Source: Kofleriaceae bacterium (GTDB lineage Bacteria > Myxococcota_A > Polyangia > Haliangiales > Haliangiaceae). Taken from it: a stretch of 23,686 nucleotides of DNA. The stretch covers positions 192,001-215,686 of the forward strand of contig JABTUH010000016.1 in NCBI GenBank assembly GCA_015075455.1, given 5' to 3'. Each line of letters opens with the position of its first letter. Position 1 is the first letter of the stretch. Below, one piece after another: positions 2,189-18,197 of the stretch. Both the position numbers and the translations under genes were made by a program. A model generated the notes under the pieces. That model was not told the DNA's origin. It saw only the letters and a list, made by a program, of their open reading frames with translations, and made no database searches.

Positions 2189-2929
2189 TCAGGCGAGGGC
2201 GGCCGTGACGTAGTGGGCGACGCGCGGCGCCAGGACGGAGGGATCGCCGCGGGCGCCGCGGCGCAACCAGCGCTGGGTGAACGCATGGATGATGCCGGCC
2301 ACGACCGCGGCGGCGTCGGCGGCGTCGGCGCGGGCAACCCCGGTGTGGCGGTAGAGCCAGGTCGCGAGCGCCAGCAGGTAACGCTCGGCCCCGGACCGCA
2401 CCGCCTGCGCCAGCCGCGGGCAGGCGGCGACCACCGGGAAGACGAGGAGGGTGTCGCGCCAGGCGGCGGCGACGCGGAGCTGGTGGGAGACGAGGAGCTC
2501 GAGGGCGTGGCGCCGCGACAGGCCGGCGGGCACCGGCTCGGCGAGCGTGCCGGCGAAGGCGTGCCAGAGCTCGGCGTGGAGCGCGAGGAACAGGTCGTCC
2601 TTGCCGCGGAAGTGCTCGCAGAGCGACGATGCCGCCATGCCCGCTGCTCCGGCGACGTCCTGCATCGAGGTGTCCGCGCCCCGGCGCGCCATCGCCCGGG
2701 CCGCGGCCTCGAGGATGCGCCCCGCGCCCCGACCGCGCCGCCCGCTCGACCGCGCCGCCCGCTCGACCGCGCCGCCCCGCCCGACCGCGCCGCCCCCGCC
2801 CGACCGCGCCGCCCCGCCCGACCGCGCCGCCCGCCCGACCGCGTCGGCGCGGCGAGCGCCACCGGATCTCGCAGACCGTGCAGATATCGCAGACTTGCGG
2901 GGGGAGGTGGCCATGCTACGAACGAGCAT
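2189..2929 (-). CDS. TetR/AcrR family transcriptional regulator (start codon uncertain; N-terminal ~70 codons overlap a tandem DNA repeat)
   Basis: Classic TetR HTH 'RILEAAARAMARRGADTSMQDVAGAAGMAASSLCEHF' followed by a helical ligand-binding region. Divergent from the RND efflux operon. No in-frame start exists between the repeat and helix 1, so the start is taken as the ATG at 2927-2929 or the ATG at 2912-2914. Confidence 0.7.
   Translation of the reverse strand: MLVRSMATSPRKSAISARSARSGGARRADAVGRAARSGGAARSGGGGAVGRGGAVERAARSSGRRGRGAGRILEAAARAMARRGADTSMQDVAGAAGMAASSLCEHFRGKDDLFLALHAELWHAFAGTLAEPVPAGLSRRHALELLVSHQLRVAAAWRDTLLVFPVVAACPRLAQAVRSGAERYLLALATWLYRHTGVARADAADAAAVVAGIIHAFTQRWLRRGARGDPSVLAPRVAHYVTAALA
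2730..2843. repeat. Tandem repeat of 'cgaccgcgccgccc(c)(c)gc(t/c)' with unit lengths 17,17,18,19,18,17 (plus partial)
   Basis: Seen directly. Encodes Arg/Ser/Gly/Ala low complexity in the TetR N-terminal reading frame. Unit lengths are not multiples of 3. Confidence 0.85.
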
Positions 2930-2953
2930 TCGGAGCGACCGAATGCCCGTTCG
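2919..2953. promoter_or_regulatory. Candidate TetR operator: 15-bp inverted repeat 'cgaacgagcattcgg-agcga-ccgaatgcccgttcg'
   Basis: Half-sites are reverse complements with 1 mismatch in 15, separated by 5 bp. Lies between/overlapping the divergent tetR start and the OMP start, with an RBS-like GGAG at 2932-2935. Confidence 0.5.
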
Positions 2954-4316
2954 GATCGAAGTTGACCCCCGCTCACCTCGCTGTCAAGCCGCCCTCCGTC
3001 GCGCGGCCGTGGCGCTGCTCGTGCTGCTCGCCCTCGCCGGCACCGCCGCCGCCGCCCCCCTCACCCTCGACGAGGCGGTGCGCCTCGCCCTCGACACCTC
3101 CGAGGACGTACGCGCCGCACGCGCCCGCCGCGCCCAGGCCGACGCCGGCGTCACCGCCGCGCGCGCCGCGCTCCTGCCCGGCCTCACCCTCACCGGCTCG
3201 TACACGCGCCGCGCCCGCGAGGTGACGCGCAACGTCGGCGGCGAGGACGTCACGATCCAGAGCGCCAACGCCCTGGGCGCCAACCTCACCGTCGCCACCA
3301 CGCTCTTCGACGGCCGCGCCTACCCGCTCCTGCGCGCGGCCCGCCGCCAGCGCGACGCCGCCACGCTCGACGAACAGGAGCGCCGCCGCCAGATCGCGTT
3401 CGGCGCGGCCGCCGCCTTCCTCACCGCGCTCGGCCACGAGCGCGTCGTCGACGCCGCTGTCCGTCGCCAGGAGTTCGCGGTCGCCCGCCAGCGCGACGCC
3501 GCCGCCCGCGTCGACGCCCGCCTGGTCTCCACCAACGATCGCACCCAGGCCGATCTCGAGGTCGCCACCGCCAGCCGCGAGCTCGCCGGCGCGCGCGCCG
3601 CCCTCGCCGTCGCCTACGCCGAGCTGGCGTGGTGGATCGGCGGCGACGTGGCCGGCCCCCTGGTCGAGCCCGATCGCCTCCACGCGACCGCGAGCGCGCC
3701 CCAGCCCGATCCCGCCGGCCTCGCCGACCTCGCCCACCGGCAGCGGCCCGACCTCGCCGCCACCCGCCTCCGCGTCGACGTCGCCCGCGAGCTCGCCGCC
3801 GAGCCCGGCCGCCGCGCCTGGCCGACCCTCGACCTGATCGGCCAGTACCGCCTCACCAACGAGGCCGGCCTCTCGGGTCACAACACCGACTGGCTGGTGA
3901 CGCTCAGCGCCACCTGGGAGCTGTGGGACGGCGGTCGCCGCGGCGCCGACGCCCGGGCCCGCGCGCTCGACGTCGAGCTGGCCCACCTCGACGTCAGCGC
4001 CGCCGATCGCCGCGCCCGCGCCGAGCTCGCCGCCGCCCGGGCCCGCCTCGACGGCGCGCGCGCCGCCCTGCCCCCCGCCGAGCAGGTGGCGGCGGCCGCG
4101 GCCCAGCACGCCGACGAGGTCGCCGTCCTCTACGCCCAGGGCCTGGCCCGCGCGCTCGACGTGGTCGACGCCGGCGCCCGCCGCTACGATGCCGAGGTGG
4201 CGGTCGCCCGGGCCCGCGTCGAGCTCGCCGCCGCCTGGCTCGAGCTGGGCCTGGCCACCGGCGCCCCGCCCCTCGCGACCCCGACCTCGCCCTCACCCGA
4301 CGGAGACTCGCCGTGA
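2943..4316 (+). CDS. Outer-membrane efflux protein (TolC-like OEP family)
   Basis: Signal-peptide-like 'RRAAVALLVLLALAGTAAAA'. Two OEP-type repeats: 'LTLDEAVRLALDTSEDVRAARARRAQADAGVTAARAALLPGLTLTGSY' and 'RPDLAATRLRVDVARELAAEPGRRAWPTLDLIGQY'. GGAG 7 nt upstream of ATG 2943. The ORF-track frame extends upstream to 2451, but that part overlaps tetR and is rejected. Stop TGA at 4314-4316 overlaps the next start. Confidence 0.8.
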   Translation: MPVRIEVDPRSPRCQAALRRAAVALLVLLALAGTAAAAPLTLDEAVRLALDTSEDVRAARARRAQADAGVTAARAALLPGLTLTGSYTRRAREVTRNVGGEDVTIQSANALGANLTVATTLFDGRAYPLLRAARRQRDAATLDEQERRRQIAFGAAAAFLTALGHERVVDAAVRRQEFAVARQRDAAARVDARLVSTNDRTQADLEVATASRELAGARAALAVAYAELAWWIGGDVAGPLVEPDRLHATASAPQPDPAGLADLAHRQRPDLAATRLRVDVARELAAEPGRRAWPTLDLIGQYRLTNEAGLSGHNTDWLVTLSATWELWDGGRRGADARARALDVELAHLDVSAADRRARAELAAARARLDGARAALPPAEQVAAAAAQHADEVAVLYAQGLARALDVVDAGARRYDAEVAVARARVELAAAWLELGLATGAPPLATPTSPSPDGDSP

Positions 4317-5653
4317 ACCGTCCCGCCCGCCTCGCCCTCTGTGCGCTCCTCCTCGCCCCGGCGCTGGGCTGCGGCGACGGCAAGGCTGGCGGAAAGCCAC
4401 CGGCGCGCCGCGAGGTCAAGTTCCCGGTGGAGGTCCGCCCGGTCGAGCTGCGCGCCGTCGAGTACGGCGTCAACGCTCTGGGGACCATCGACGTGTTCGA
4501 GCGGGTCCAGGTCACCGCGCGGGTCGCCGGCGTCGTCGACGCGGTCAAGTTCACCGAGGGCGACGTCGTGACGCGGAACCAGGTCCTGGTCGCGATCGAT
4601 CCGGCGCGCTTCGCCCTCGCCGAGCGCCAGGCCCGAGCCGCCGTCGATCGCGCGCGCATCGCCGTCACCGACGCCGAGGCCGGCCTCGCCCGCCGCGAGT
4701 CGGCGGACCGCAGCAACCCCGGCCTCATCCCCGGCGAGGAGCTCGAGACCTGGCGCAACCGGGTGGCCGCGGCCAAGGCCGACCTCGCCGAGCGCGCCGT
4801 CGCCCGCGATCGGGCAGCCCTCGACCTCAAGGACGCCTACGTCCGCGCCCCCATCGCCGGCGAGATCGAGTCGCGCCAGGTCGCGACCGGCGCCTACGTC
4901 CAGCCCGGCACCGTGCTGGCCACGATGGTCCGCCGCGAGCCGCTGCGCCTGCGCTTCGACGTGCCCGAGGCCGAGGCCGCGCCGATGGCCAAGGGCGGGC
5001 TCGCCCGCTTCACGATCACCGGTCACGACCACGTCTTCACCGCCACGATCGTGCATGTGGCGGCCGCCGCCGAACCGACCTCGCGCATGGTCCGCGTCAC
5101 CGCCGAGATCGATGACCCCGACCGCGCCCGCCTGCGCGCCGGCGGGTTCGCCCAGGTCGTCGTTCCGGTGGGCGGCACCGCCCAGGCCCCGGTCATCCCC
5201 GAGACCGCGATCCGCCCCAGCGAGCGGGGCTTCCTCGCCTTCGTGGTCGAGGGCGAGGTCGCCCGCGAGCGCATCCTCGAGCTCGGCCTGCGCACCGCCG
5301 ACGGCCTGGTCGAGGTCCGCCGCGGCCTCGCCTCCGGCGAGCAGCTCGTCGTCCGCGGCGCCGAGGCGCTGCGCGAAGGCGCGCCGATCCGCCTCGGCGT
5401 CAAGCCGGGTCAGGGCGGCCCCGGCGGCCCAGGCGGCCCCGGCGGCCCTGGCGGCCGCGGCGGCAACGGCGGCCCCGGCGACAAGGGCGGCCCCGGCGGC
5501 AAGGGGCGGCGACACGCCGGGCCCGCCCGCGGCCGCGCCCGCCCCCACCGCGCCGGCGCCGGACGCCGACGCGCCCTCCCGACTCGCCGTCCCCGGGCCG
5601 CGCCCGCCGGCGCCGCACCCGCCCCCGCCGCGCCGCCCGGGGGGCCGCGGTGA
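4313..5653 (+). CDS. Efflux RND transporter periplasmic adaptor (membrane-fusion protein), probable lipoprotein, with Gly/Pro-rich C-terminal tail
   Basis: GTG at 4313 overlapping the upstream stop (GTGA). 'LALCALLLAPALGCGDGK' is a lipoprotein-type signal. Biotin-lipoyl/HlyD-like core 'VQVTARVAGVVDAVKFTEGDVVTRNQVLVAIDPARF...' is present. Tail 'GQGGPGGPGGPGGPGGRGGNGGPGDKGGPGGKG...' runs to the stop at 5651-5653. Confidence 0.8.
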   Translation: MNRPARLALCALLLAPALGCGDGKAGGKPPARREVKFPVEVRPVELRAVEYGVNALGTIDVFERVQVTARVAGVVDAVKFTEGDVVTRNQVLVAIDPARFALAERQARAAVDRARIAVTDAEAGLARRESADRSNPGLIPGEELETWRNRVAAAKADLAERAVARDRAALDLKDAYVRAPIAGEIESRQVATGAYVQPGTVLATMVRREPLRLRFDVPEAEAAPMAKGGLARFTITGHDHVFTATIVHVAAAAEPTSRMVRVTAEIDDPDRARLRAGGFAQVVVPVGGTAQAPVIPETAIRPSERGFLAFVVEGEVARERILELGLRTADGLVEVRRGLASGEQLVVRGAEALREGAPIRLGVKPGQGGPGGPGGPGGPGGRGGNGGPGDKGGPGGKGRRHAGPARGRARPHRAGAGRRRALPTRRPRAAPAGAAPAPAAPPGGPR

Positions 5654-8600
5654 ACATCACCGAGATCTGCATCCGGCGACCCGTCTTCGCCTGGATGATC
5701 ATGCTGGCGACCGTGCTGTTCGGCGTGGTCGCCATCGGCCGGGTCGGCGTCTCGCAGTACCCCGACGTCGACTTCCCGACGATCAGCGTCGGCGTCACCT
5801 GGGAGGGCGCCGCTCCCGACGTGATGGAGGCCGAGGTCATCGAGGTCATCGAGGAGGCGGTGATGCAGGTCGAGGGCGTGCGCGCGGTCAACTCCAGCGC
5901 GCGCCAGGGCCAGGCCTCGGTGACCATCGAGCTCGACATCGACCGCCCGGTCGATCTCGCCTTGCAGGACGTGCAGACCCGCGTCGCCCAGGCCCAGCGC
6001 CGGCTGCCGGTCGACATGGATCCGCCGACGATCTCCAAGACCAACCCCGAGGACCAGCCCATCATGTGGGTCGGCCTGTCGGGGCCCTACTCGCGCGCGC
6101 TCCTCACCGACACCGCCAAGTACGAGATCAAGGAGCGCCTGCAGACCCTGCCCGGCGTCGGCGAGGTCACGCTCGGCGGCTTCCTCGAGCGCAACGTCCG
6201 CATCTGGCTCGACGCCGCCGCCCTCGCCCGCCACAAGCTGACCCCCGCCGACGTCCAGGCCGCGCTCCAGCGCGAGCACGTCGAGCGCCCCGCCGGCCGC
6301 ATCGACGCCCGCGGCCGCGAGATCACCGTGCGCGTCCTGGGCGAGGCCTTCGACCTCGCCACGCTGCGCGACATCATCATCACCCGCATCGACGGCGCGC
6401 CCATCCGGCTCGGCGCCGTCGCCGTGGTCGAGGACGGCTTCGAGGACGAGCGACGCATCGCCCGCAGCCTCGGCTTCCCGGTCCAGGGCATCGGCATCCG
6501 CAAGCAGCGCGGCGCCAACGCGGTGGCGGTGGCCCAGGCGGTGCGCGCCGAGCTGGTCAAGATCAACGACCGCCTGCCCGAGGGCATGGTGGCCGCGGTC
6601 AACTTCGACTCGGCGCGCTTCATCGAGGACACCGTCCGCCACATCGAGATCGAGCTGATCATGGCGGTCCTGCTCACCGCGCTGGTGTGCTGGATGTTCC
6701 TGGGCTCGCTGTCGAGCACGCTCAACGTGATCCTGGCGATCCCGATGTCGTTACTCGGGACGATCGCCGCGATCTACTTCCTCGGCTTCACCCTCAACAC
6801 CTTCACCCTGCTCGCGCTGTCGCTCGCGGTCGGGATCGTCGTCGACGACGCCATCATGGTGATGGAGAACATCTACCGCCACGCCGAGATGGGCAAGCCC
6901 GCGGCGCAGGCCGCCCGCGAAGGCACGCGCGAGATCACCTTCGCCGCCCTGGCCGCCACCATCGCCGTCGTCGCCATCTTCGTGCCGGTCGTGTTCATCG
7001 AGGGCGTCACCGGCAAGTACTTCATGCAGTTCGGCGTGACCCTGTCGATCGCCGTGCTCCTGTCCTACGTCGAGGCCATCACCCTGGCCCCGGCCCGCTG
7101 CGCCCAGTTCCTGCGCGCCGGCCGCCACGACCGCATGTGGCTGGGGCAGCAGGTCGACCGCGGCTTCGCCACCCTGGCCCGCGGCTACCGCTGGCTGCTC
7201 ACCCGCGCCCTGCGCTGGTCGTGGGTCGTGCTGCTGGCCGCCGCCACCTCGATCGTCGGCCTCGTCCACGGCGTGCAGTCGCTGCCCAAGGAGATGGTGC
7301 CGGCCCAGGACCAGAGCCGGCTCATGGTCCGCATGTTCACCGAGGTCGGGACCTCGCTCGAGGAGACCGACCAGGTCTTCCGCCAGGCCGAGGAGTTCAT
7401 CAACGCCCAGCCCGAGGTCCGCCGCACGATGGCGATCGTCGGCGGCTTCGGCGGCGGCAACGTCAGCCAGGTGATCGTCATGACCTCGCTGGTGCCGCGC
7501 TCCGAGCGCCAGGTCAGCCAGGCCGAGTTCGCGACCCGGTTGCGGCGCAACCTCTCCGGCATCGCCGGCCTGCGGGTGGTGGTCCAGGACCTGTCGCAGT
7601 CGGGCTTCACCGCCAACCGCGGCTTCCCGGTCGAGGTCAGCGTGCGCGGCCCCGACTGGCCGACGCTGGTCGACGAGGCCCTGCGCCTGCGGGACGCGCT
7701 GGCCGAGAGCGGGATGGTGATGGACGTCGACACCGACTACGAGCTCGGCATGCCCGAGCTGCGGCTGCTCCCGCAGCGCGACCGCGCCGCCGATCTCGGC
7801 ATCTCCGTCGACGACATCGCCACGGCGGTCAACACGATGATCGGCGGCGTCCGCGCCGGCAAGTACAGCTCCGGCGGCCGCCGCGTCGACGTCCGGCTCA
7901 AGGTCCGCCGCGATCAGCGAGCCAGCCCCGACGCCCTGGGCCAGCTCTACCTGCGGGCGCGGACCGGCGAGATGATCCCGCTCTCGACCCTGGTCGAGCT
8001 GGAGGAGCGGCCGGCGCTGCAGTCGATCACCCGGCGCGACCGCGAGCGCGCCATCACGATCACCGCCAACGTCGCCCCCGGCTACTCCCAGCAGGACGCC
8101 CTGACCAAGGTCCGCGAGCTGAGCAAGACCCTGCCCCCCGGCTACAAGGCGGTGCTCGGCGGCGCCAGCGCCAGCTTCCTCGAGTCGTTCGCGGGGCTCG
8201 GCTTCGCCTTCCTGCTCGGCGTGGCCGTCGCCTACATGGTGCTCGGCTCGCAGTTCAACTCGTTCCTCCACCCGGTCACCGTGCTGACGATCCTGCCGCT
8301 GTCGCTGGTGGGCGCGGTGTTCGCCCTGCTCTACAGCGGCCAGACCCTCAACATCTTCTCGATGATCGGCCTCCTCCTCCTGGCCGGCATCGTCAAGAAG
8401 AACTCGATCATCCTCGTCGAGTACGCCAACAACGCCCGCGACCGCGGCCTCGACGCCCGCGCCGCGATGATCGAGGCCGGCCCCACCCGGCTGCGCCCCA
8501 TCCTGATGACCTCGATCGCGACCATGACCGCGGCGGTGCCCGCCGCCCTCGGCCTGGGCGAGGGCAGCGAGACCCGCACCCCGATGGCGATCGCCGTCAT

Positions 8601-8712
8601 CGGCGGCCTGGCGGTGTCGACCGCGCTCAGCCTGTTCGTGGTCCCCGCCTTCTACGTCGTCGCCGACGCCGTGCGCCGCCGCCTCGGCCTGGGCGGCTCG
8701 GCCGCGCCCTGA
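5650..8712 (+). CDS. RND efflux permease, AcrB/HAE1-like inner-membrane pump (1020 aa)
   Basis: Canonical N-terminus 'MNITEICIRRPVFAWMIMLATVLFGVVAIG' (GTG start overlapping the MFP stop as GTGA). Length ~1020 aa. Two large periplasmic loops plus 12-TM pattern, e.g. 'VVDDAIMVMENIYRH' (AcrB Asp407/408 equivalent). Confidence 0.9.
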   Translation: MNITEICIRRPVFAWMIMLATVLFGVVAIGRVGVSQYPDVDFPTISVGVTWEGAAPDVMEAEVIEVIEEAVMQVEGVRAVNSSARQGQASVTIELDIDRPVDLALQDVQTRVAQAQRRLPVDMDPPTISKTNPEDQPIMWVGLSGPYSRALLTDTAKYEIKERLQTLPGVGEVTLGGFLERNVRIWLDAAALARHKLTPADVQAALQREHVERPAGRIDARGREITVRVLGEAFDLATLRDIIITRIDGAPIRLGAVAVVEDGFEDERRIARSLGFPVQGIGIRKQRGANAVAVAQAVRAELVKINDRLPEGMVAAVNFDSARFIEDTVRHIEIELIMAVLLTALVCWMFLGSLSSTLNVILAIPMSLLGTIAAIYFLGFTLNTFTLLALSLAVGIVVDDAIMVMENIYRHAEMGKPAAQAAREGTREITFAALAATIAVVAIFVPVVFIEGVTGKYFMQFGVTLSIAVLLSYVEAITLAPARCAQFLRAGRHDRMWLGQQVDRGFATLARGYRWLLTRALRWSWVVLLAAATSIVGLVHGVQSLPKEMVPAQDQSRLMVRMFTEVGTSLEETDQVFRQAEEFINAQPEVRRTMAIVGGFGGGNVSQVIVMTSLVPRSERQVSQAEFATRLRRNLSGIAGLRVVVQDLSQSGFTANRGFPVEVSVRGPDWPTLVDEALRLRDALAESGMVMDVDTDYELGMPELRLLPQRDRAADLGISVDDIATAVNTMIGGVRAGKYSSGGRRVDVRLKVRRDQRASPDALGQLYLRARTGEMIPLSTLVELEERPALQSITRRDRERAITITANVAPGYSQQDALTKVRELSKTLPPGYKAVLGGASASFLESFAGLGFAFLLGVAVAYMVLGSQFNSFLHPVTVLTILPLSLVGAVFALLYSGQTLNIFSMIGLLLLAGIVKKNSIILVEYANNARDRGLDARAAMIEAGPTRLRPILMTSIATMTAAVPAALGLGEGSETRTPMAIAVIGGLAVSTALSLFVVPAFYVVADAVRRRLGLGGSAAP

Positions 8713-8754: not shown

Positions 8755-9138
8755 TCAGCCGGCCGTGGCCGCGATCAGCGCCAGCACCCGCGCCCGCAGC
8801 GCCTGCGGCGCCCACGGCTTGGCGATGACCTCGTCGACGACACCGGCGGCCTGGGCCGCGACCAGGGTCGGCTCGTCGTCGAAGCCGGTCACGACCACGA
8901 CCCGCAGCCGGGGCCAGCGCGCGCGCGCGGCCCGGGCCAGCTCGACCCCGGTCGGCCGCCCCAGGGCCAGGTCGCTGACCAGGGCGTCGGCCGGCCAGCG
9001 CTCGAGCACCGCCAGGGCCTCGGTGGCGTCGGCGGCGGCCACCACCTCGGCGGCGCGGGCGAAGGTCCGCACCATCAGGTCGCGGTTGTACAGCTCGTCG
9101 TCGACGACCAGGATGCGCGGCGGCGGACCGTCAGCCAC
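8755..9138 (-). CDS. Single-domain response regulator (CheY-like receiver)
   Basis: 'RILVVDDE' acidic pocket, '[12 protein letters not shown]' phospho-acceptor Asp, 'VVVVTG' Thr, 'AKPW' Lys. No output domain. GTG start overlaps the histidine-kinase stop by 8 nt. Confidence 0.8.
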
Positions 9139-10501
9139 CGCCGACCTCGTCGCCGAGGCCCGCTGCCCGTGATCCTGGCGCGACCGCGAGCGGCGCCGGG
9201 GCCTCGACCCGCGGCCGCTCCGCCGCGCCGTCGCTCGGGCCGCGCACCGGGATCGTGACCACGAACTCGGCGCCAGCGCCGGCGCGGTTGGCCCAGCGCA
9301 AGGAGCCGCCGTGGGCGCGCACGATGTTGGCGCAGATCCACAGCCCGAGGCCGGTGCCCTCGCCGACCTCCTTGGTGGTGAAGAACGGATCCGAGATCTT
9401 CTCCATCAGGTCGGGCTTGATGCCGGGCCCCGAGTCACAGATGGTGACGCGGATCGCCGCCCCGTCGTCGACGGTCTCGATCGCGACGTCGATCCACCCG
9501 GTGCCGGCGATGGCCTGGGCGGCGTTGGTCAGGATGTTCATGAACACCTGGTTGACGTGGCCGGCGTTGCACAGCACCCGCGGCACGCCGGGCGCGATCC
9601 GGCGCCGGACCTCGACCCGGTTCTTGAGCAGGGGCCCGATCAGGTTGAGCGTGGTGTCGATGCCGCCGACGATGTCGGTCTCGGCCAGCTCGTTACCCCC
9701 GGTGCGCGCGAAGCTCTTGAGATCGGCGACGATGTCGGCGGTGCGCTCGGCGCCGGCCCGGATCGACCGCAGGAGCTTGCGCCAGTCGGCGACCAGGAAG
9801 TCGAGCTCGACCTCGGCCTTGAGCGCGTCGAGCGCGGCCCGCAGCTCGGGCGGCAGCGCCGCGCCATCGACCAGCGCCACCAGCCGCAGCAGGTCCTCCA
9901 TGTACTGGCCGAGGAAGTCGACGTTGCCGTAGACGAAGTTGATCGGGTTGTTGAGCTCGTGGGCGATGCCGGCCACCAGCCGGCCCAGCGACGACATCTT
10001 CTCCTGGTGGACGAGCTGGGCCTGGGCCGCGCGCAGCTCGTCGGTGCGCTCCCGCACCTTCTCCTCGAGGTCGCCCTTGGCCCGCCGCTCGTGCTCGAGC
10101 GCGACCTTGAGCCGGCGCTGGATGCGGACGTCGGCGGTGACGTCGCGGTAGGTCTCGACCACCACCGCCTCGCCGTCGTCGAGCTCGACCGGGGCCGCGG
10201 TCACGATGAAGGTGAGGTCCTCGCCGTCGCCGCGGCGGGCGCCGATCTCGTCGACCCGAAGCCGCCGCCCGACCTCGCGCACCTTGCAGCCCAGGCACGC
10301 CTGCTCGCAGATCTCGAGCTTGAACAGCTCGTGGCAGCGGGCCCCGGCCTTGACCTTCTCGGCGAGCTGGCGCCCGCGCAGGCCGGTCAGCGCCTCGTAG
10401 GCCTGGTTGTAGTGGAGCACCCGACGCTCGGCGTCGAGGACGACGGCGGCGTCGACGCTGCCATCGAGGAGCTGGGTGATCTGGTGGAACAGCTTGGCCA
10501 A
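9131..10501 (-). CDS. Sensor histidine kinase: N-terminal PAS-like domain with 4-Cys motif, coiled coil, HisKA, HATPase_c
   Basis: H-box '[19 protein letters not shown]', N-box '[17 protein letters not shown]', G1 'DSGPGI', G2 'GTGLGLWI'. N-terminal '[19 protein letters not shown]' (C-x8-C-x3-C-x2-C). TTG start at 10499-10501. Confidence 0.85.
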
Positions 10502-10550
10502 GCGGGGGGCTCGGGGGGCGGAGCGCGGGATGGTGCCGGATCGGTCCGGA

Positions 10551-11048
10551 TCAGGCCTCCGCCAGGAACGACAGGTAGCGCTCGGGCAGGTCGTCGAACT
10601 CCATGGTCGCGCCGCACTGCGAGCAGGCGAACTGCGGGATCTCGTGCTTGCCGCCGGTCTGCGTGACGTCGACCAGCTTCTCCTCCTCCTGGCCGCAGCG
10701 GTCGCACACGTAGGGCGCGAAGAAGGAGCGGATGCGAGCGTTGCCGCGGAAGTTGTAGATCATGTTGAGCTGGGTCACGATCGCCGGCGAGCAGTGCGAG
10801 AACGACAGCTCGGTGACGTGGGGCAGATCGCGGACGAAGTTGACCCACTCGCGCACGCCGCAGCTGTTGATGCGGCGGACCTCGCCGAGCTGGAACGCCA
10901 CGGCGCCGCGCAGCCGCCGCCGCAGCTCGACGAAGTCGGCGTTCTCGTCGATCTCCCCCACGAACTCGACGGTGGTCAGGCCGGGGCGTTCGCGGATGCG
11001 CCACGACAGCGCGACCGGCTCGGGCCCCCGCACGTCCGCCGTCGCCAT
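10551..11048 (-). CDS. STAS-domain (anti-sigma-factor-antagonist-like) protein fused to C-terminal C4 zinc ribbon
   Basis: '[18 protein letters not shown]...[23 protein letters not shown]...SPAIVTQL' aligns by eye to SpoIIAA ('IRLTGELD...IVLNLEDLSFMDSSGLGVILG...SPAVKRL'), including the phospho-Ser position. C-terminal 'CDRCGQ-x24-CSQCG' zinc ribbon. ATG at 11046-11048, 4 nt after the upstream gene stop. Confidence 0.75.
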
Positions 11049-11052
11049 CGCC

Positions 11053-11976
11053 TCACTCCATCCGCTCGGGCGACTTCTCGAAGTGCTGGCGGACCTCGGT
11101 CCGCGCCGCCTCGTCGAGCGACGCCGGCTCGATCAGCACGTCCTTGACGTCGAAGCGCACCGGCTCGGGGCTGGCGAAGACGCCGCGCTTGACGACGCGG
11201 CCCATGCGCCCGGCGAGGCCCTGGTAGGCGGCCTTCGACGGCGAGGCCCAGCCCGAGATCGCGCCGCCGCCGCCGAAGCGGGTCACCGCGGTCCCGACCG
11301 AGGCGACCGTCGCCGCCGGCACCTTGGCGTTGACCTGGACGAAGGCGGGGTTGGGCACCGCGCCGGTGTCGAACAGCTTGGCCAGGCCCTTCTGCGAGCC
11401 GATGGGCGCGAACACCGCCTGCGCGCCCTTGTACGACGCGACCTCGGCGACCGCGGCCGTCAGGTCGGGCTTGCCGACCCGGCTGGCGAAGAAGCCGGCG
11501 TCGACCTCGGACTCGAGCATGGCGTTGTCGACGAAGCCGTTGTCGTTGCAGCCGGTCTGCACGAACGCCAGCTTCTTGCCCTCGAGCGCCTTCATGTCGC
11601 CGCCGGCGCCCGAGAACAGGGCGTAGGTGCGGGCGCCGCTGCCGCCGATCTGGGCGTTGGCCAGCAGGTTCCAGCCCAGGTTGGTGGCGTAGCACTGGGC
11701 GTCGACGATCGCGAAGTCGACGCCGGCGCTCTTGAGGGCGCCGAACGAGGCGAACGACTTGGCCTCGGTCTTGACCCCGGTCTGGGCCTCGATCGCCTTG
11801 GCCAGGCCCTGGACGTAGGACAGGCGGTCCTGGGCGGTGCCGAACTCGACCGACGGCGCGTAGATGCCGATCACCAGCTTGCCGGGCGCCGGCTGGGTGG
11901 TGCCGGGACGGACCACCAGGGCGACGGCCAGGGCGACCAGGCAGAGCGTCGGGATGATGATGCTGAGCTTGCGCAT
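11053..11976 (-). CDS. Periplasmic solute-binding protein, PhnD/SsuA-like (putative)
   Basis: Signal peptide '[22 protein letters not shown]'. AGGAG 8 nt upstream of ATG. Type-2 SBP-like pattern '[10 protein letters not shown]...[13 protein letters not shown]...[11 protein letters not shown]...VDAGF'. Family assignment is tentative. Confidence 0.55.
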
Positions 11977-11995
11977 GGTGTGCTCCTGGGTGCCG

Positions 11996-14647
11996 CTAGT
12001 AGCCGTAGATCCGCTTCTTGGCGTCGATCCACTTCTGGAGATCGCGCGCGCCGGCGACCCGGCCCGACGCCGAGCGCCAGGCCTCGTAGGCGTCCTTGGG
12101 CCGCCCCGCCTGGTCGTAGAGGATGCCGAGGTTGACCAGCGCCTCGGGCGGCTGGCCGCGCAGCGCCTCGAGGGCGCCGATCTTGCTCTTGTCGAGCGAC
12201 AGCACCGCGCGGTTGTTGACCAGGCGACGCTTGGCGTCGTCGCTGGCGAAGCGCTCGGCGCTGTCGAGGGCCTTGGCCGCGGGCCCGGTGCGGCCGTTGC
12301 GCCAGTGGTCGAACGCGACGTACTCCCACGACGACGCGATCAGGTCGCGGACCTTGGTGCTGAAGGCGCCGGTGGCGCTGCCGAGCAGGCGGGTGAAGGT
12401 CGCGGCCGCTCGTTCGCGCAGGGTGGCGTTGTTCGAGCGGTAGTCGGCGTAGGCGCCGAAGAACTCGGTGCCGACCTTGGCGTAGGGCGCCTTGAGGTAC
12501 GCGGCCTGGTTGCCCTTGGCGGCGAGCTGCTTGAAGTACTTGCCGGCCTCGGCGGTGTCGCCCTTCTCGAGCAGGGCCAGGGCGTAGCTGAACTCGAAGG
12601 CCGCTGGCTCGGTGCCCTTGAGCAGCGAGGGCTCGCGGGTCGCGCGCTCCAGGTCGGCCACCGCCTCCGCGTCCTTGCCGGCCTTGATCGCCCGCCAGCC
12701 GCGGCGGAACAGGGCGAGGGCGAGGTTGCGCTTGGCCGCGGGCGCCACCTCCGGCGACTGGGCGGCGAAGCCCACGGCGATGCCGAGCTTCTCGACCGCC
12801 TCGTCGAGCTTGGTGTCGACCAGCAGCGGCGCCCACTCGGTGTAGATCTCGGCCTTCATCAGGTTCGCCTGGTTCTTGGTGGCCTCCTCGTCGGCCTCCG
12901 CGAAGTGCTGGGCGGCCCGCGCCTTGTCGGGCTTCTTCGCGCACAGGTGGGCGCGGCCGGCCAGGCGGTTGTAGAGCATGGAGTAGCCGCGGCGGTTGTC
13001 CTTGATGCGGTCGAGGTAGCGCAGCCCGCCGTCGCAGTCGCCGCGGTCGATGGCCAGGACCGCCAGGTTGAGCGCGACCATCGGCGAGCGGTCGTCGACC
13101 TTGAGCGCCTCCTCGAGGAAGGCGGCCGCGGTCTTGCCGTCACCCTTGGTGAAGGCGCCGGCGGCCTGGGCGTTGATGGTCTCGACGAGCGCGCGCCGGA
13201 TCTGCAGCTCCCTGGGTCGCAGGGCCACCGCGGCCTCGAAGCGCTGGCGCGCCACCACCAGCTTGCCCTGGTTGTACTGGGCCTTGGCGCTGACCAGGTA
13301 GAGCTCGGCGGCGAGCTCGGGCGGCGCGCTGGCGAACGCCTTGCCGGCGATGAGCTGGTCGGCGGTCTTGGCGGCGTCGCCGTCGCGCCGGGCCGCCAGG
13401 TAGGCGCCGCCGAGCTCGATGCCGAGGTCGAAGCTCGACGGGTCGAGCTGGCGGCCGGCCTCGAGCTTCTCGATGGCCAGCGCCAGGTTGGTGTTCTGGG
13501 CGCCGGTCGACGGCATGCGGCGGTAGGTCTTGCCCAGCCGCACGCTGAGCTCGCTGGCGCCCGCGCCGCCGCGCATGAGCTTCTCCGCCTGCAGGTAGGC
13601 CGCCAGGGCCTGGCCCCAGTCGCGCTCCTGGAAGTAGGCGTCGCCGATGAGGATGTAGCCGCGGGGCTCGTTCTTGCGCTTCTTCAGGTACTCGTTGGCG
13701 GCCTGCCGCGCCCGCTGCGGCAGCTTCTTGGCCAGGTACGCCGAGCCGAGGTTGAAGTAGACCGAGCCGTTGCTGTCGATGTTGCGCGGGTTGCCCTGCA
13801 GGCGCTCGCACACGGTGATGGCCTGGTCGAACTTGCGCAGGCCGGTGTAGGCGGCGCACAGTCCGATGTCGGCGTTGGGCTGGGCGTACTGGGCCTTGCC
13901 GTGCTTGCGGACGACGGTCTCGAACTCCTTGACCGCGCGCTCGTAGTCCCGGTTGGCGGCGTCGTGCTGGCTCTCGCGCACCGCCATGCGGCCGCGCGCC
14001 AGGTACGAGAAGCCGAGCCGGATGCGGGGCAGGACGTCGCGGCTCTCGCGATCGGCGGGCCGCGCCGCCAGGTACGCCTCGTAGGCGGTGATCGTCTTCA
14101 GCGGATCGCGGTTGAAGTAGAACTCGCCCAGGATCTGCTGGTTGGAGAACAGCGAGGCCCGCTTGGCCACCGCCTTCTCGGCGACCGCGACCGCGCCCGG
14201 CTTGTCGCCGGTCGCCCACAGGAGCAGCGCCTCCTGCTCGAGGACCTCGGCGGCCTCGGGGTGGGTGCGCTTGGCCACGGTGCGGATGAACTCGAGCCCG
14301 CCCTTGTAGTCGGCCTGGATGATGAAGATCGCCGCCCGCTTGCCGTAGGCCTCGGGCGGGACCTGGGTCGGGGCCGAGCGGATGGCCGAGTCGAAGGCCG
14401 CGGCGGCGCGTCGCCAGTTGGCCTCCTCGAAGTAGCGATCGCCCTCCTTCAGGTCCTCGGCCACGTCGGCGACGGCGGTGCCGGCGGCGAGGAGGACGAG
14501 CACGAGCCCGAGGGCGGCGGCCCAGGTGCGGGCCAGGCCGCGCGTGGCGCAGGACGTTCGCGTTGGTTCGTTCACGGGTTCCTCGTTCACGGGTTCCTCC
14601 ACGGGGGCCGTCGCGGCCCGGGCCTGCCAGCGCTCAGCGTTGCGCAC
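11996..14647 (-). CDS. Large TPR-repeat protein (883 aa) with N-terminal signal/anchor
   Basis: Hydrophobic 'WAAALGLVLVLLAAGTAVA' followed by many ~34-aa TPR-like units ('AAAAFDSAIRSAP', 'AVAEKAVAKRASLF', 'GDAYFQERDWGQALAAYLQA', etc.). Sits in the operon between the PP2C and SBP genes. Start at 14647 is preceded by a 15-bp tandem repeat in the coding region. Confidence 0.75.
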   Translation of the reverse strand: MRNAERWQARAATAPVEEPVNEEPVNEPTRTSCATRGLARTWAAALGLVLVLLAAGTAVADVAEDLKEGDRYFEEANWRRAAAAFDSAIRSAPTQVPPEAYGKRAAIFIIQADYKGGLEFIRTVAKRTHPEAAEVLEQEALLLWATGDKPGAVAVAEKAVAKRASLFSNQQILGEFYFNRDPLKTITAYEAYLAARPADRESRDVLPRIRLGFSYLARGRMAVRESQHDAANRDYERAVKEFETVVRKHGKAQYAQPNADIGLCAAYTGLRKFDQAITVCERLQGNPRNIDSNGSVYFNLGSAYLAKKLPQRARQAANEYLKKRKNEPRGYILIGDAYFQERDWGQALAAYLQAEKLMRGGAGASELSVRLGKTYRRMPSTGAQNTNLALAIEKLEAGRQLDPSSFDLGIELGGAYLAARRDGDAAKTADQLIAGKAFASAPPELAAELYLVSAKAQYNQGKLVVARQRFEAAVALRPRELQIRRALVETINAQAAGAFTKGDGKTAAAFLEEALKVDDRSPMVALNLAVLAIDRGDCDGGLRYLDRIKDNRRGYSMLYNRLAGRAHLCAKKPDKARAAQHFAEADEEATKNQANLMKAEIYTEWAPLLVDTKLDEAVEKLGIAVGFAAQSPEVAPAAKRNLALALFRRGWRAIKAGKDAEAVADLERATREPSLLKGTEPAAFEFSYALALLEKGDTAEAGKYFKQLAAKGNQAAYLKAPYAKVGTEFFGAYADYRSNNATLRERAAATFTRLLGSATGAFSTKVRDLIASSWEYVAFDHWRNGRTGPAAKALDSAERFASDDAKRRLVNNRAVLSLDKSKIGALEALRGQPPEALVNLGILYDQAGRPKDAYEAWRSASGRVAGARDLQKWIDAKKRIYGY
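14568..14600. repeat. Tandem 15-bp repeat 'gttcacgggttcctc' x2 (+1 partial) encoding 'EEPVNEEPVNEP' in the TPR gene 5' end
   Basis: Seen directly in sequence. Confidence 0.8.
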
Positions 14648-14663
14648 CGGTGCTCGCCGGTGC

Positions 14664-16352
14664 TCAGAAGACCTTGCCGATGACGAGCGTGATGTCGTCC
14701 TTGCGGATGTTGTCGCCGAAGAAGTTGGCGGCGTCGGTCACGACGGCGTCGCGGATCTCCCCGGCCTCGAGCGCGGCCGCCCGCCGCACCGAGGCCCGGA
14801 AGCGCTTCTCGCCGTACTCCTCGCCGCCGCTCGACTCGCACTCGACGATGCCGTCCGTGTACCAGACCAGGATGTCGCCGGGCATGAGCTCGGTGGTCTT
14901 GACCTCGTACTTCGACTCCTTGAGGTCGCCGAGCCGGTTGCCGCGGATCATCAGCGAGCCGAACTCGCCCTGCCCGCCCTCCGAGGTCCGGTACAGGTAG
15001 GGGAAGTTGTGGCCGGCGTTGGCGTACGTGATCGTGCGCCGGCGGGTGTCGATGACCGAGGCGAAGCAGGTCATCACGAACTTGCGCTTGGCGCTCTGGT
15101 AGATCGCCGAGTTCATGATCTCGAGCAGCTTGGCCGGGTCGACGTTGTCGCCGTTGACGGCGCGGGCGACGTCGCACGCCGCCTTGGCCGCCGCCGTGAT
15201 CATCGCCGACGGCACGCCGTGGCCGGTGACGTCGCCGATCACGACCAGGACCTTGTCGCCGACCATGTCGTGCCACGTCCACCAGTCGCCGCCGCACTGC
15301 GACGCCGGCTGGAAGTAGCCGGCGAAGCGCAGCGTGCCCTTGTCGACCGGATCGTGGGTCGGCACCAGGGTCTCCTGGATCGTCCGCGCCACCTCGAGCT
15401 CCTTCTCCATCGTCGCCTTCTCGGCGGTCTGCTGGAGCAGCACGAGGAGCTGGTCGGCCATGAAGTTGAAGTTCTCGCCGAGCAGGCCGAGCTCGTCGGT
15501 CGACTTGACCTCGACGCGGGCGGCCAGATCACCGCGGGCGATCTGGTCGGCCTTCCACGCCAGGAGCTTGATGGGCTTGGAGATCTGGACGCCCTGGAAG
15601 ATCGCGAGCAGGGTGCCGATGAGCACGAACAGCGCGCCGAAGGCGCCGGTGCGTAGCGCGGCCTTGCGCGCCTCCTCGTCCTTGAGCTTGGCGCTCTCGC
15701 GGGCGAAGGTGTCGACCGGCGACAGGTCGTAGCCGAAGACCACGTAGCCCTGACGGTTCTCGCCCGGGTCGTCGGCCGCGGCGGCGGCCGGGCTCCAGCC
15801 GACCTGCTCGCCCGAGAACACCGGGTAGGCGAACAACAGCAGCTTGCCGTCCTCGCCGGCGGTCCAGTCGAGCGAGACGCTGATCTCGGGCTCGGTCGCG
15901 GCGGCGCGCCGCTTCCACTCCTCCAGCACCTTGGCCCACGACGCGTGCTTGACCCGCTCGCCCTCGACCTCGCCGGCGGCGTCGCAGCGGTCGTCCTTGC
16001 GCCGGCAGTACTTGATGAGGTTCTGGACGCGACCGACGACGTAGACCAGCTTGAGCTCGGCGTCGTGCTTGAGGGTGTCGTCGACGATCTCCTTGATCTC
16101 GACGTCCTGGGTGTTGATGAAGTACGAGCGCAGGCCCTGGCCGAAGAAGATCGTGTTGGTCTCGCCCTTGCTCTCGAGCTGCTTGCGGTACTCGGTGATC
16201 TTGTCCTTGGCCGCGCGATCGTAGGCCTCGCGGATGTTGCACGCGTTCAGCAGACCGAAGCCCACCACCGTGAGGAGGATCAGGAACGTGGTGGTCAAGA
16301 TCATCTTGACCGAGATGCTCAAGCCGCCGCGCTTTGCCATTGGCCATGCCAT
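14664..16352 (-). CDS. Membrane-bound RsbU/SpoIIE-type PP2C serine phosphatase with periplasmic sensor region and HAMP domain
   Basis: TM1 '[18 protein letters not shown]', ~200-aa extracytoplasmic region, TM2 '[17 protein letters not shown]'. HAMP-like '[45 protein letters not shown]'. PP2C motifs '[10 protein letters not shown]', '[15 protein letters not shown]', 'NAGHNFPYL', 'VWYTDGIVE'. Confidence 0.85.
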
Positions 16353-16522
16353 GTTACGGCGTCTGGTCGGAAGGGGTCAACGAAGCGTCCCCGCGACCGG
16401 TCGGTCCATGTCCGGTGTAAAGTTCCACATGCGCCGATGTGGGTGTCCCGCGCGCACCGCCGCGCGCCTCGGCCGTCGGCGCCAGGGGTCGCATTGGCGA
16501 GCGCGCGACGCGCTCTGCTACG

Positions 16523-17089
16523 ATGCCGGGGATGGAGTCCCACCCCGCGCTGACCCAGTTCCTGACCGAGTTCAAGCGCGTGGCCAGCGCCATCGTCGAC
16601 AGCTACTTCATCGTCGACACCGAGCGCCGCATCGTCGACTTCAACCGCGCGTTCTTCGCGATGCTGCCGCGGCAGGTGGCGCGCGGCCTCAAGGGCAAGC
16701 GCTGCTTCGAGGTCATCGAGCTCAACATCTGCCGCAGCGAGTGCATCGCCCAGCAGTGCTGGACCGACAACCGACACGTCCGGCTCGACGAGATCAGCGG
16801 CAAGGTGCTGGGCGAGCCCGACGCCAAGGAGCTGCGCTTCATCCTGTCGGCGGTGCCGATCACCGACGAGAGCGGCCAGCACGTCGGCGCCCTCGAGATC
16901 CAGCGCAACGTCACCGACGAGGCGGTGGTCCAGGTCAAGTACCAGGAGATGCTCGAGAACGAGGCCCGCGAGCGCGAGCGCCTCGCCAACCAGATCCGCG
17001 CCCGCACCAAGGAGCTGCTCGAGACCAACCAGCTCCTGCTCAAGACCCAGAAGGAGCTCCTGTCCTACAAGAAGGGCCTCTCGGCCTGA
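16523..17089 (+). CDS. Stand-alone PAS-like sensor domain with 4-Cys motif plus C-terminal coiled coil; kinase-less paralog of the histidine-kinase N-terminus
   Basis: '[22 protein letters not shown]' (C-x8-C-x3-C-x4-C). Collinear similarity to histidine-kinase residues ~20-190 ('[16 protein letters not shown]' vs '[16 protein letters not shown]', '[10 protein letters not shown]' vs '[10 protein letters not shown]', '[14 protein letters not shown]' vs '[14 protein letters not shown]'). Ends just before where the histidine-kinase H-box would start. Start at ATG 16523 or 16532. Confidence 0.75.
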
Positions 17090-17111
17090 GCGCCGGGTGC
17101 CCCCCCCGGGG

Positions 17112-18059
17112 CTACTTGCCGCTGAAGAGCAGGAACGCCAGCACGCCGATGGCCGCGAGCAGCACGACCACGAGCACGTAGATCACGGCGCTCGACTTGG
17201 GCTGGGTCAGCGCCGGGCGCTCGGCGGGGACCGGCGTGGAGAAGCTGCCGCTGCCGGGGTTGGTGCCGGGCGAGGTGAAGTTGCCCGGCCGGCTGCCCGG
17301 GTTGGTGCCCTGGAACGAGCCCACCGGGCGCATGCCGGGGTGGGTGGTGGTCGTCACCGGCGTCATCGACGGCCGGCTGCCCGGCTTGGCGGTGATCGAC
17401 GGCGAGCTGCCGCTGGGCCGCGAGATCGACGGCAAGGACGGCACGCTGGGCAACGACGACACCGACGAGCTGTGCAGGCTCGAGGTGCCGGTGCGCGAGC
17501 GGATCTTGGACTTCTCGCCGTTGTCACCGGAGGCGAACTCCTTGATGACGCCGTTGATCTTGTCGGGCTCGGCGATCTTCTTCTGGTTCGACAGGAACGC
17601 GAAGTACGAGTCGGCCATGTCGTCGAAGTCCATGACCAGATCGCACTCGTCGCAGCGACAGGTCGGCGGCTCGTGCGGCCCCGAGCCCATGTCGGCCGCC
17701 TCGACGAGCAGCACCTTCTCCTCGTCGCACTCGGGACAGAAGTACGGGACGTAGAAGCTCTTGACCACGCCCGACCCGGTGAAGTTGTTGACGAGGTTGA
17801 TCTGGGCGACGATCGCCGGCGAGCACTCGACGAGCACCGCGCGGGTCGCCTGGGTCTCGAGCTTGCCGAGCCAGTTGACCCAGTCGCGCACGCCACACGA
17901 GTTGATGCGCTCGATCTCGCCGAGATCGATCACCGCCGTACCCGCCGGGATCTTGTCGGTCAGCGCGGTGAGCTCGTTGTCCTCGTCGATGACACCGCTC
18001 AGCTTGACGTAGCTGACGTCGTCGCGGTGGTGGACCGACGCCTGAAACTTCTGGCTCAT
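17112..18059 (-). CDS. STAS-domain plus C4 zinc-ribbon protein with Ser/Pro/Gly/Thr-rich linker and C-terminal transmembrane anchor
   Basis: Paralog of 10551..11048: '[23 protein letters not shown]...[15 protein letters not shown]...YFCPECDEE...[15 protein letters not shown]'. Then ~110 aa low-complexity ('[29 protein letters not shown]...[20 protein letters not shown]') and '[22 protein letters not shown]' TM. GGAGA 5 nt upstream of ATG 18057-18059. Confidence 0.8.
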
Positions 18060-18197
18060 TGCGTCTCCGTCGACACGTAATTCACGTAGCCGTGATTACA
18101 CCTGTACCCTAGAACCTTCAACTCGCAAAGCATATCGTGATCGCGCCAGCGGGATCCACTCCATGGACGTCGATCGTGGCCCGTCCCCCGCCTCGTG
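18060..18197. promoter_or_regulatory. Lower-GC intergenic region with imperfect inverted repeat 'gtaattcacgtagccgtgattac'; probable promoter/regulatory region for the STAS-ZnR-TM gene
   Basis: Local GC visibly lower (~50%) than the ~72% background. Contains an RBS and the palindromic element. No sigma-factor consensus assigned. Confidence 0.35.

Follow-up and report, generated by a model that had tools for sequence, protein, structure and literature searches.

What do four closely spaced cysteines do in the sensor domain of a bacterial histidine kinase? The question is posed by a stretch of 23,686 nucleotides from a Kofleriaceae bacterium of the Myxococcota_A (assembly GCA_015075455.1, contig JABTUH010000016.1, positions 192,001 to 215,686 of the forward strand). 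This stretch, which we refer to as the window, has a G+C content of about 72% and encodes on its minus strand a kinase whose PAS domain contains the motif C-x8-C-x3-C-x2-C. An earlier reading based on the letters and the translated open reading frames (the sequence-only reading) had noticed the motif and listed a zinc site, an iron-sulfur (Fe-S) cluster and a thiol-redox switch as candidate explanations. Comparison of the kinase with its relatives leads us to regard the cysteines as the probable cofactor site of an Fe-S PAS domain of the OrpR type, and the kinase as a probable redox or oxygen sensor. OrpR (DVU2106) is a sigma-54 enhancer-binding protein with an N-terminal PAS domain from Desulfovibrio (Nitratidesulfovibrio) vulgaris Hildenborough (Fievet et al. 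2021, PMC8359166).

The kinase and its cysteine cluster

The kinase gene (9131..10501, minus strand), delimited by its open reading frame, translation and Pfam matches, encodes a protein of 456 amino acids in which a PAS domain is followed by a coiled-coil-like linker, a HisKA domain and a HATPase_c domain. A Pfam scan at E<=0.1 placed PAS_4 at residues 12-124 (E 1.1e-7), HisKA at residues 172-266 (E 7e-9) and HATPase_c at residues 315-420 (E 6.9e-23). On the DNA the PAS domain, the proposed Fe-S cluster-binding sensor module, occupies 10127..10480 (residues 8-125, minus strand). It is joined to the DHp helix by a putative helical linker of coiled-coil character (residues 126-170, [45 protein letters not shown]; 9992..10126, minus strand), which is presumably the route of signal transmission. 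The HisKA/DHp domain (9704..9988, minus strand) carries the phospho-acceptor H181 (codon 9959-9961) in the H-box AHELNNP, and the catalytic, ATP-binding HATPase_c domain lies at 9242..9559 (minus strand). With an H-box histidine in the DHp domain and a GHKL ATPase domain, the protein is recognisable as a classical HisKA-class two-component histidine kinase. It has neither a transmembrane segment nor a signal peptide and the PAS domain stands right at the N-terminus, so the kinase is taken to be soluble and cytoplasmic. Its sequence is exactly that of MBE7453652.1, whose public label is just 'PAS domain-containing protein [Kofleriaceae bacterium]', and a locus 99% identical is found on contig CAADGB010000479.1, part of an uncultured deltaproteobacterial metagenome-assembled genome (MAG).

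The cysteine cluster (10286..10336, minus strand) corresponds in translation to residues 56-72, [17 protein letters not shown], with the codons for C56 at 10334-10336, C65 at 10307-10309, C69 at 10295-10297 and C72 at 10286-10288. The longer string quoted in the sequence-only reading, [20 protein letters not shown], represents residues 54-73. Since residues 56-72 fall inside the PAS_4 match, the cluster lies within the PAS domain, and both the translation and the Pfam boundaries agree with the number, spacing and location of the cysteines as originally described. Two residues beyond the first cysteine, at a position that we call C1+2, stands the acidic residue E58 (10328..10330, minus strand), the counterpart of the conserved D/E54 of OrpR.

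One scan of species-representative genomes yielded 26 orthologous kinases from Kofleriaceae, Haliangiales and Myxococcales MAGs, with 62-91% identity, and the complete C-x8-C-x3-C-x2-C motif is kept in all 26. Only 35 of the 116 PAS columns (residues 10-125) are invariant in this set, all four cysteines among them, and the residues that flank the cluster cysteines drift: H57 is replaced by Y or F, and the position after C72 can be K, G, V or Q. The position of E58 is occupied by E or D in 25 of the 26 orthologues and by Q in one. A distant relative with 45% identity (locus L028) retains the first three cysteines only. The cysteines of the kinase are thus almost certainly conserved for a function, as the sequence-only reading had supposed. 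Their absence from orthologues, which that reading had named as evidence against it, is the opposite of what was found. The notion that the cluster is a chance feature, or a quirk of the lineage devoid of function, has next to no probability: if the seven cysteines of the protein were placed at random, a 17-residue span with four of them would arise with P ~0.0045, and to this are added the invariance in the 26 orthologues and the retention of the first three cysteines across a family of many architectures (see below).

Correspondence with OrpR

The PAS domain of OrpR contains three fully conserved cysteines, C52, C61 and C65, at x8/x3 spacing, and a conserved D/E54 close to this triad that has been raised as a possible cluster ligand (PMC8359166). 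Substitution of all three cysteines by serine abolishes redox sensing and renders the activator constitutive, which is also the outcome of deleting the PAS domain (PMC8359166). Anaerobically purified OrpR is brown, with bands at 410 and 320 nm, and silent in electron paramagnetic resonance, properties consistent with a [4Fe-4S]2+ cluster that was attributed to the PAS domain. The protein contains 0.3-0.5 cluster per chain as purified, treatment with 2,6-dichlorophenolindophenol (DCPIP) or ferricyanide gives rise to a [3Fe-4S]1+ signal, and in air the cluster is lost with a half-life of ~10 min (PMC8359166).

Our comparison was made via the residue numbers given in that paper and via homologous activators. 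A search seeded with an activator-type PAS domain returned 938 relatives at E<=1e-10, and counts were taken from the 120 PAS-AAA+ N-termini listed among them, none of which is named D. vulgaris. The motif is present in 118 of these 120 sigma-54 activators of OrpR architecture. In 25 complete N-termini the first cysteine falls between residues 46 and 59, in three of them exactly at residue 52; position C1+2 is D or E in 114 of the 118, and a fourth cysteine is absent from 112 of the 118. By motif, cysteine position and acidic residue, these activators therefore fit what has been published on OrpR and its homologues. In a BLASTP alignment the kinase PAS domain shares 28% identity (E 2e-11) with one of them, P0164, and C56, C65 and C69 fall on C52, C61 and C65, with E58 on D54. 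The stand-alone PAS paralogue encoded in the same window aligns likewise to an activator of OrpR architecture (E 1e-10), and a profile derived from Kofleriaceae sequences matches activator-type PAS domains with E-values between 1e-15 and 1e-26.

In its PAS fold, its x8/x3 triad, its acidic residue at C1+2 and its significant similarity to the activators with the cysteines in register, the sensor domain of the kinase has all the marks by which an OrpR-type PAS domain can be recognised in a sequence. The Fe-S site is accordingly a prediction from homology and motif identity. Alignment against PAS families with Cys-ligated cofactors, the kind of check proposed in the sequence-only reading, puts the triad in register with that of the OrpR-type activators and two of its cysteines on ligands of NreB. 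The three candidates of that reading are not equally likely: an Fe-S cluster is clearly favoured over zinc or bare thiols because the triad and the acidic C1+2 match those of OrpR, a [4Fe-4S] protein. A redox or metal-sensing role is still the best interpretation. The sequence-only reading pointed in the right direction, but it was too wide, was centred on four cysteines where the conserved unit is a triad, and missed that a PAS domain of this kind is already described in OrpR.

A widespread cysteine triad

How far the motif extends was addressed by a profile search of 1.84 billion cluster representatives, which gave 2606 matches with an E-value cut-off of 1e-3, 269 of them also passing a cut-off of 1e-10. 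Cysteines were counted in the best 150 proteins of this search, in which 189 aligned domains cover the motif region. C-x8-C-x3(4)-C is present in 144 of the 189, and what follows the third cysteine of these 144 varies: 82 have no further cysteine, 36 have one at +5 (the type of the stand-alone paralogue), 17 at +3 (the type of the kinase) and 8 at +2. An alignment of 57 diverse members, chosen for carrying the triad, has no invariant column besides the three cysteines themselves. On these alignments the conserved functional unit is the triad C-x8-C-x3-C, that is C56, C65 and C69 of the kinase, and the fourth cysteine, C72, is lineage-specific. The outputs to which the domain is fused are diverse: the 52 family members of at least 280 residues include 20 HisKA/HATPase kinases, eight methyl-accepting chemotaxis proteins (MCPs), eight GGDEF proteins and two sigma-54 activators, together with single Ser/Thr kinase, EAL and HD proteins.

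These patterns bear on the proposal that the cysteines act as a metal-free switch, in which oxidants, quinones or reactive sulfur species would drive the formation of disulfides or persulfides among C56, C65, C69 and C72, as has been proposed for ArcB or RegB. The clustering of cysteines in a sensor pocket would suit such chemistry, and cysteine redox switches are known in histidine kinases (reviewed in PMC8063818). Yet a thiol switch usually needs one or two cysteines, the invariance of three or four, in a fixed spacing that holds for hundreds of diverse proteins, is the signature of a metal or a cluster, and the spectroscopy of OrpR reveals a cluster; we consider a bare thiol switch improbable.

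The triad PAS domain, probably an Fe-S sensor as in OrpR, emerges as a widespread and mobile sensor module that is also found in presumably aerobic myxobacteria, and proteins that contain it are publicly annotated just as 'PAS domain-containing protein'. In the searchable literature OrpR is the only characterised C-x8-C-x3-C PAS protein, a survey of PAS domains from 2023 mentions Fe-S binding for NreB only (PMC10468136), and the literature searched held nothing relevant under a named motif for CX8CX3C and its variants. Two papers from these searches, on PexR (PMC12754779) and PdtaS (PMC11537054), proved unrelated.

The family has further members of interest in their own right. Tandem copies of the C-x8-C-x3-C PAS domain occur, up to five in MCPs and three each in the sigma-54 activator P0087 and the 348-residue fragment P0043 (P0041 and P0077 are further examples of such arrays). 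The MCP copies often have an extra cysteine (...CKTEKCAC...), and multi-cluster Fe-S chemoreceptors do not seem to have been described. High-scoring relatives without any of the cysteines were also found (P0096, P0107, P0117, P0129, P0133, P0136 and P0146), mostly of ~180 residues and so near the size of the paralogue; these are natural cysteine-less versions of the same PAS scaffold.

Location of the cysteines in the PAS fold

An AlphaFold2 model of residues 8-125, computed from the alignment of 57 sequences, has the standard PAS topology with a mean predicted local distance difference test score (pLDDT) of 97.2. In the model the short E-alpha helix begins with C56, the loop between E-alpha and F-alpha contains C65, C69 directly precedes F-alpha as its N-cap, and C72 sits in the first turn of F-alpha. 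As modelled, the cysteines line the canonical cofactor pocket of PAS domains. Alignments of the profile to the Protein Data Bank (PDB) place C56 on the photoactive cysteine of LOV domains (GRNCRFL). The expectation of the sequence-only reading that the cysteines occupy a ligand pocket or surface helix is thus borne out, with C56 on the LOV cysteine and the other three in the loop between E-alpha and F-alpha or where F-alpha begins. None of the solved structures in the PDB comparison carries the C-x8-C-x3-C motif.

The same geometry brings zinc into consideration. A Zn(Cys)4 site, with either a structural or a regulatory role, could be built from a C69-x2-C72 knuckle at the N-terminus of F-alpha, completed by C56 and C65, and would either stabilise the PAS core or sense thiol oxidation through the release of zinc. 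Four invariant cysteines in the orthologues speak for such a site, as do the obvious zinc ribbons of neighbouring STAS proteins; the incomplete occupancy of OrpR as purified leaves room for other metals in the family, and the hosts are probably aerobes, in which zinc sites are sturdier than Fe-S clusters. The wider family tells against it. Its common unit is three cysteines, 57% of the members being without a fourth, and its sole characterised member binds Fe-S. The arrangement is also unlike the paired knuckles of zinc ribbons, with C65 and C69 four residues apart across the junction of loop and helix and C56 on another helix, and the fourth cysteine of the paralogue, at +5, makes no CxxC knuckle. 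A zinc site is, on balance, unlikely.

A different kind of Fe-S site has to be weighed as well. The solved sequence closest to the kinase PAS domain is the PAS domain of Bacillus licheniformis NreB (9wex; phmmer, E 0.02), and the alignment places C56 on NreB C66 and C69 on NreB C78. This NreB domain binds a [2Fe-2S] cluster through C63, C66 and C78 together with a labile sulfur ligand and senses sulfide (PDB 9wex, PMC13478379). By analogy, the cluster of the kinase might be of the [2Fe-2S] type or have one ligand that can be exchanged, and the kinase might respond to sulfide or nitric oxide (NO) rather than to redox potential; the fourth position, variable in the family (+3, +5 or none), would then tune the exchangeable ligand. 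The precedent of a three-cysteine PAS domain with a labile -SH ligand, the two coinciding ligand positions and the variability of the fourth ligand within the family all lend this some appeal. The spacing, however, is that of OrpR, with its [4Fe-4S] cluster, and not the C-x2-C-x11-C of NreB; no genes for sulfide oxidation or nitrate respiration lie beside the kinase in the window; and four cysteines leave no obvious open coordination site. We attach a low probability to this alternative. NreB does provide independent proof that, in a histidine kinase, an Fe-S cluster can be housed in this part of the PAS pocket.

Several other cofactor sites were considered and rejected. A LOV-type flavin site shares with the kinase the position of one cysteine alone, as the kinase reads GARCHELF and its pocket positions are occupied by cysteines. 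Attachment of a c-type haem (CxxCH) is at odds with the CLGCK of the kinase, with the variable residue after C72 and with a cytoplasmic protein. The spacing C65-x3-C69-x2-C72 is the CX3CX2C spacing by which radical-SAM proteins ligate a [4Fe-4S] cluster. This likeness is an analogy that bears solely on steric compatibility with a cubane and implies no relationship; a radical-SAM site is discounted by the PAS fold of the domain and by the Pfam scan, which gave only PAS, HisKA and HATPase families.

Proposed mechanism of sensing

In the mechanism that we favour, C56, C65 and C69 would most likely each bind one iron of a [4Fe-4S] cluster, and the lineage-specific C72 would most likely supply the fourth ligand and give an all-cysteine site. 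Oxidation, or attack by O2, NO or reactive oxygen species (ROS), would convert or destroy the cluster in the manner of OrpR, from [4Fe-4S]2+ via [3Fe-4S]1+ to loss. The change in the cluster would alter the conformation of the PAS domain, and this would be relayed through the helical linker to the DHp helix with H181, where autophosphorylation would be switched; the kinase would in this way operate as a cytoplasmic redox or oxygen sensor. The identity of the cofactor and the role of C72 as a ligand are inferred, and so are the signal, be it redox potential, O2, NO or ROS, and the direction in which the kinase responds.

A number of points weigh against this mechanism. A cofactor is not observable from sequence and can be predicted only, and the comparison with OrpR was made through published residue numbers and homologous activators. 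A CxxC at the N-terminus of a helix, such as C69-x2-C72, is the classic zinc knuckle. Cultured members of the Kofleriaceae and of Haliangium are aerobes. The natural host of OrpR is a strict anaerobe, and the OrpR cluster is labile in air; in an aerobic host the domain could be mostly in the apo form or hold another ligand. The set of ligands poses a further difficulty. If the acidic residue at C1+2 were a fourth ligand that is replaced wherever a fourth cysteine is available, the acidic residue should be relaxed in proteins with four cysteines, but D or E is found at C1+2 in 59% of the three-cysteine class and in 94% and 86% of the +3 and +5 classes, respectively, so that this replacement model is not supported.

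An Fe-S cluster of the OrpR type is still the explanation that we prefer, and the kinase offers a concrete and testable case of the triad module driving a kinase. The variants with no fourth cysteine, or with one at +3 or +5, amount to a natural experiment in which the fourth cluster ligand is varied; the fourth position probably sets the stability of the cluster, and hence what is sensed.

The kinase-less PAS paralogue

A tblastn search of the window with the kinase PAS domain detected one paralogue, on the plus strand. This kinase-less protein of 185 amino acids (16532..17089, plus strand; MBE7453657.1, 'PAS domain-containing protein'; Pfam PAS_9/PAS_4) consists of a PAS domain and a linker helix. 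Its match to the kinase extends over kinase residues 1-168 (30% identity, E 5e-23) and so includes both the PAS domain and the linker, where residues 126-170 align with the C-terminal helix of the paralogue; the alignment stops right before the position of the H-box. Its cysteine cluster (16703..16759, plus strand; [19 protein letters not shown]) reads C-x8-C-x3-C-x4-C and is invariant in all 19 paralogue orthologues. The sequence-only reading had held that the arrangement of the kinase recurs in this protein, which is partly correct: the first three cysteines match, and the fourth, at +5, is shifted by two residues. Identity among genomes is 83-97% for the paralogue versus 62-91% for the kinase, so that the paralogue is much the better conserved of the two. 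This conservation, and an end exactly at the H-box position, suggest that the paralogue is under constraint as a partner or modulator and is not a fragment in decay. It shares the linker helix, and might conceivably heterodimerise or compete with the kinase. The G+C content dips to 0.655-0.68 at 16001-18000, where the paralogue and the second STAS gene are located, versus 0.70-0.79 over most of the window; a value of 0.67 was also recorded at 1001-2000.

Gene neighbourhood

The kinase is the last gene of a run on the minus strand that encodes, in order, a HAMP-PP2C protein, an 883-residue TPR protein, a 307-residue protein, a 165-residue protein and the kinase; beyond this run lie the PAS paralogue, a 315-residue paralogue of the 165-residue protein and an 1807-residue TPR protein. 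The 165-residue protein (10551..11048, minus strand), encoded directly upstream of the kinase and co-oriented with it, combines a STAS fold with a C-terminal CxxC...CxxC zinc ribbon. Its AlphaFold2 model (pLDDT 79) has as best Foldseek matches 4hyl, an anti-sigma-factor antagonist of Haliangium, SpoIIAA and RsbV, and it is a possible signalling partner of the kinase. The 315-residue copy (17112..18059, minus strand), convergent with the PAS paralogue, gives weak STAS_2 and anti-sigma antagonist matches, is 39% identical to the shorter protein (E 9e-39) and is extended by a Ser/Pro-rich linker and, at its C-terminus, a hydrophobic tail. One STAS-ribbon gene hence stands beside each triad-PAS gene. 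Where SpoIIAA and RsbV have their phosphorylatable serine, the STAS-ribbon proteins share a conserved INSCG loop, and their ribbons contain four invariant cysteines; they belong to a family of at least 628 database members that is without a Pfam domain and mostly annotated as 'hypothetical protein'.

Between the two PAS genes lies the gene for a HAMP and PP2C phosphatase similar to SpoIIE and RsbU (14664..16352, minus strand; Pfam SpoIIE 2.8e-42, HAMP 7.1e-14). The 307-residue protein (11053..11976, minus strand), encoded between the TPR and STAS genes, has a hydrophobic, signal-like N-terminal segment and no Pfam match, and is syntenic with 48-84% identity. All eight genes (9131-23621) are syntenic in ~25 Kofleriaceae and Haliangiales genomes (loci L001-L028), in the order TPR (1807 residues), second STAS-ribbon protein, PAS paralogue, HAMP-PP2C, TPR (883 residues), 307-residue protein, first STAS-ribbon protein and kinase. 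Even L028 still holds the trio of PP2C, STAS-ribbon protein and three-cysteine-PAS kinase. Among the proteins of the window no cognate response regulator for the kinase was found, and no obvious RsbW-type kinase or sigma factor, though the phosphatase and antagonist parts of a partner-switching system are present. The conserved synteny with PP2C and STAS-ribbon genes, taken with the lack of a response regulator in the window, suggests that the putative Fe-S PAS proteins feed a partner-switching-like module.

These threads can be drawn into a single, more daring scenario. The +3 and +5 sites would be distinct, separately tuned all-cysteine Fe-S sensors that evolved in aerobic myxobacteria, and might differ in their O2 or redox thresholds or in cluster type; the paralogue would heterodimerise or compete with the kinase; and the redox signal would pass into partner switching by the STAS (plus zinc-ribbon) and HAMP-PP2C proteins. 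As a whole this is speculative and we think it unlikely, but if true, Fe-S PAS sensing would be coupled to two-component signalling and partner switching in a way not yet described.

Convergent with the kinase lies a resistance-nodulation-division (RND) efflux operon (2451-8712, plus strand) that encodes an OEP outer-membrane factor, an HlyD-type membrane fusion protein and an AcrB-type pump. Its first two open reading frame calls overlap heavily and their starts are uncertain, since the high G+C content causes overlapping calls.

Comparison with known systems

Among PAS domains with solved structures, LOV domains (e.g. 6rhg, PpSB1-LOV) are the best structural and profile matches to the kinase sensor, and the first triad cysteine stands at the photoactive cysteine of GxNCRFL. 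The kinase differs from them in that the rest of the flavin mononucleotide signature (NCRFLQ and the arginine of F-alpha) is absent, and two to three more cysteines replace pocket residues.

With NreB the kinase shares the organisation of a soluble histidine kinase with an N-terminal PAS domain, and the Fe-S cysteines of NreB occupy the same E-alpha/F-alpha region, where NreB C78 and kinase C69 each directly precede a short helix. NreB exists in three-cysteine and four-cysteine versions, and the oxygen-sensing NreB of Staphylococcus carnosus holds a [4Fe-4S] cluster. The motif of NreB, however, is C-x2-C-x11-C(-x2-C) as opposed to C-x8-C-x3-C-x2-C, with two coinciding positions, and the two proteins also differ in the class of their kinase core and in genomic context. 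The similarity, beyond the single-sequence match to 9wex, reaches E 2.4e-5 with the profile but over positions 1-61 only, and is weaker than that to LOV and DosP PAS domains. Since the motifs differ, the kinase is not an NreB.

The closest parallel is OrpR. Both proteins have an N-terminal cytoplasmic PAS domain with an identical C-x8-C-x3-C triad and an acidic residue at C1+2 (D/E54 in OrpR, E58 in the kinase). The sensor domain is all that they have in common: the kinase lacks a Sigma54_activat domain and signals through HisKA and HATPase_c, whereas the output of OrpR is an AAA+ sigma-54 activator, and orthology of the two proteins was rejected. The kinase has in addition an invariant fourth cysteine, C72; its host is presumably an aerobic myxobacterium, that of OrpR a strict anaerobe; and its gene is surrounded by STAS, PP2C and TPR genes rather than by the orp operons. 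In comparison with these systems the kinase is nothing categorically new: its sensor is most likely an Fe-S PAS domain of the OrpR type, here joined to histidine kinase domains and endowed with a lineage-specific fourth cysteine.

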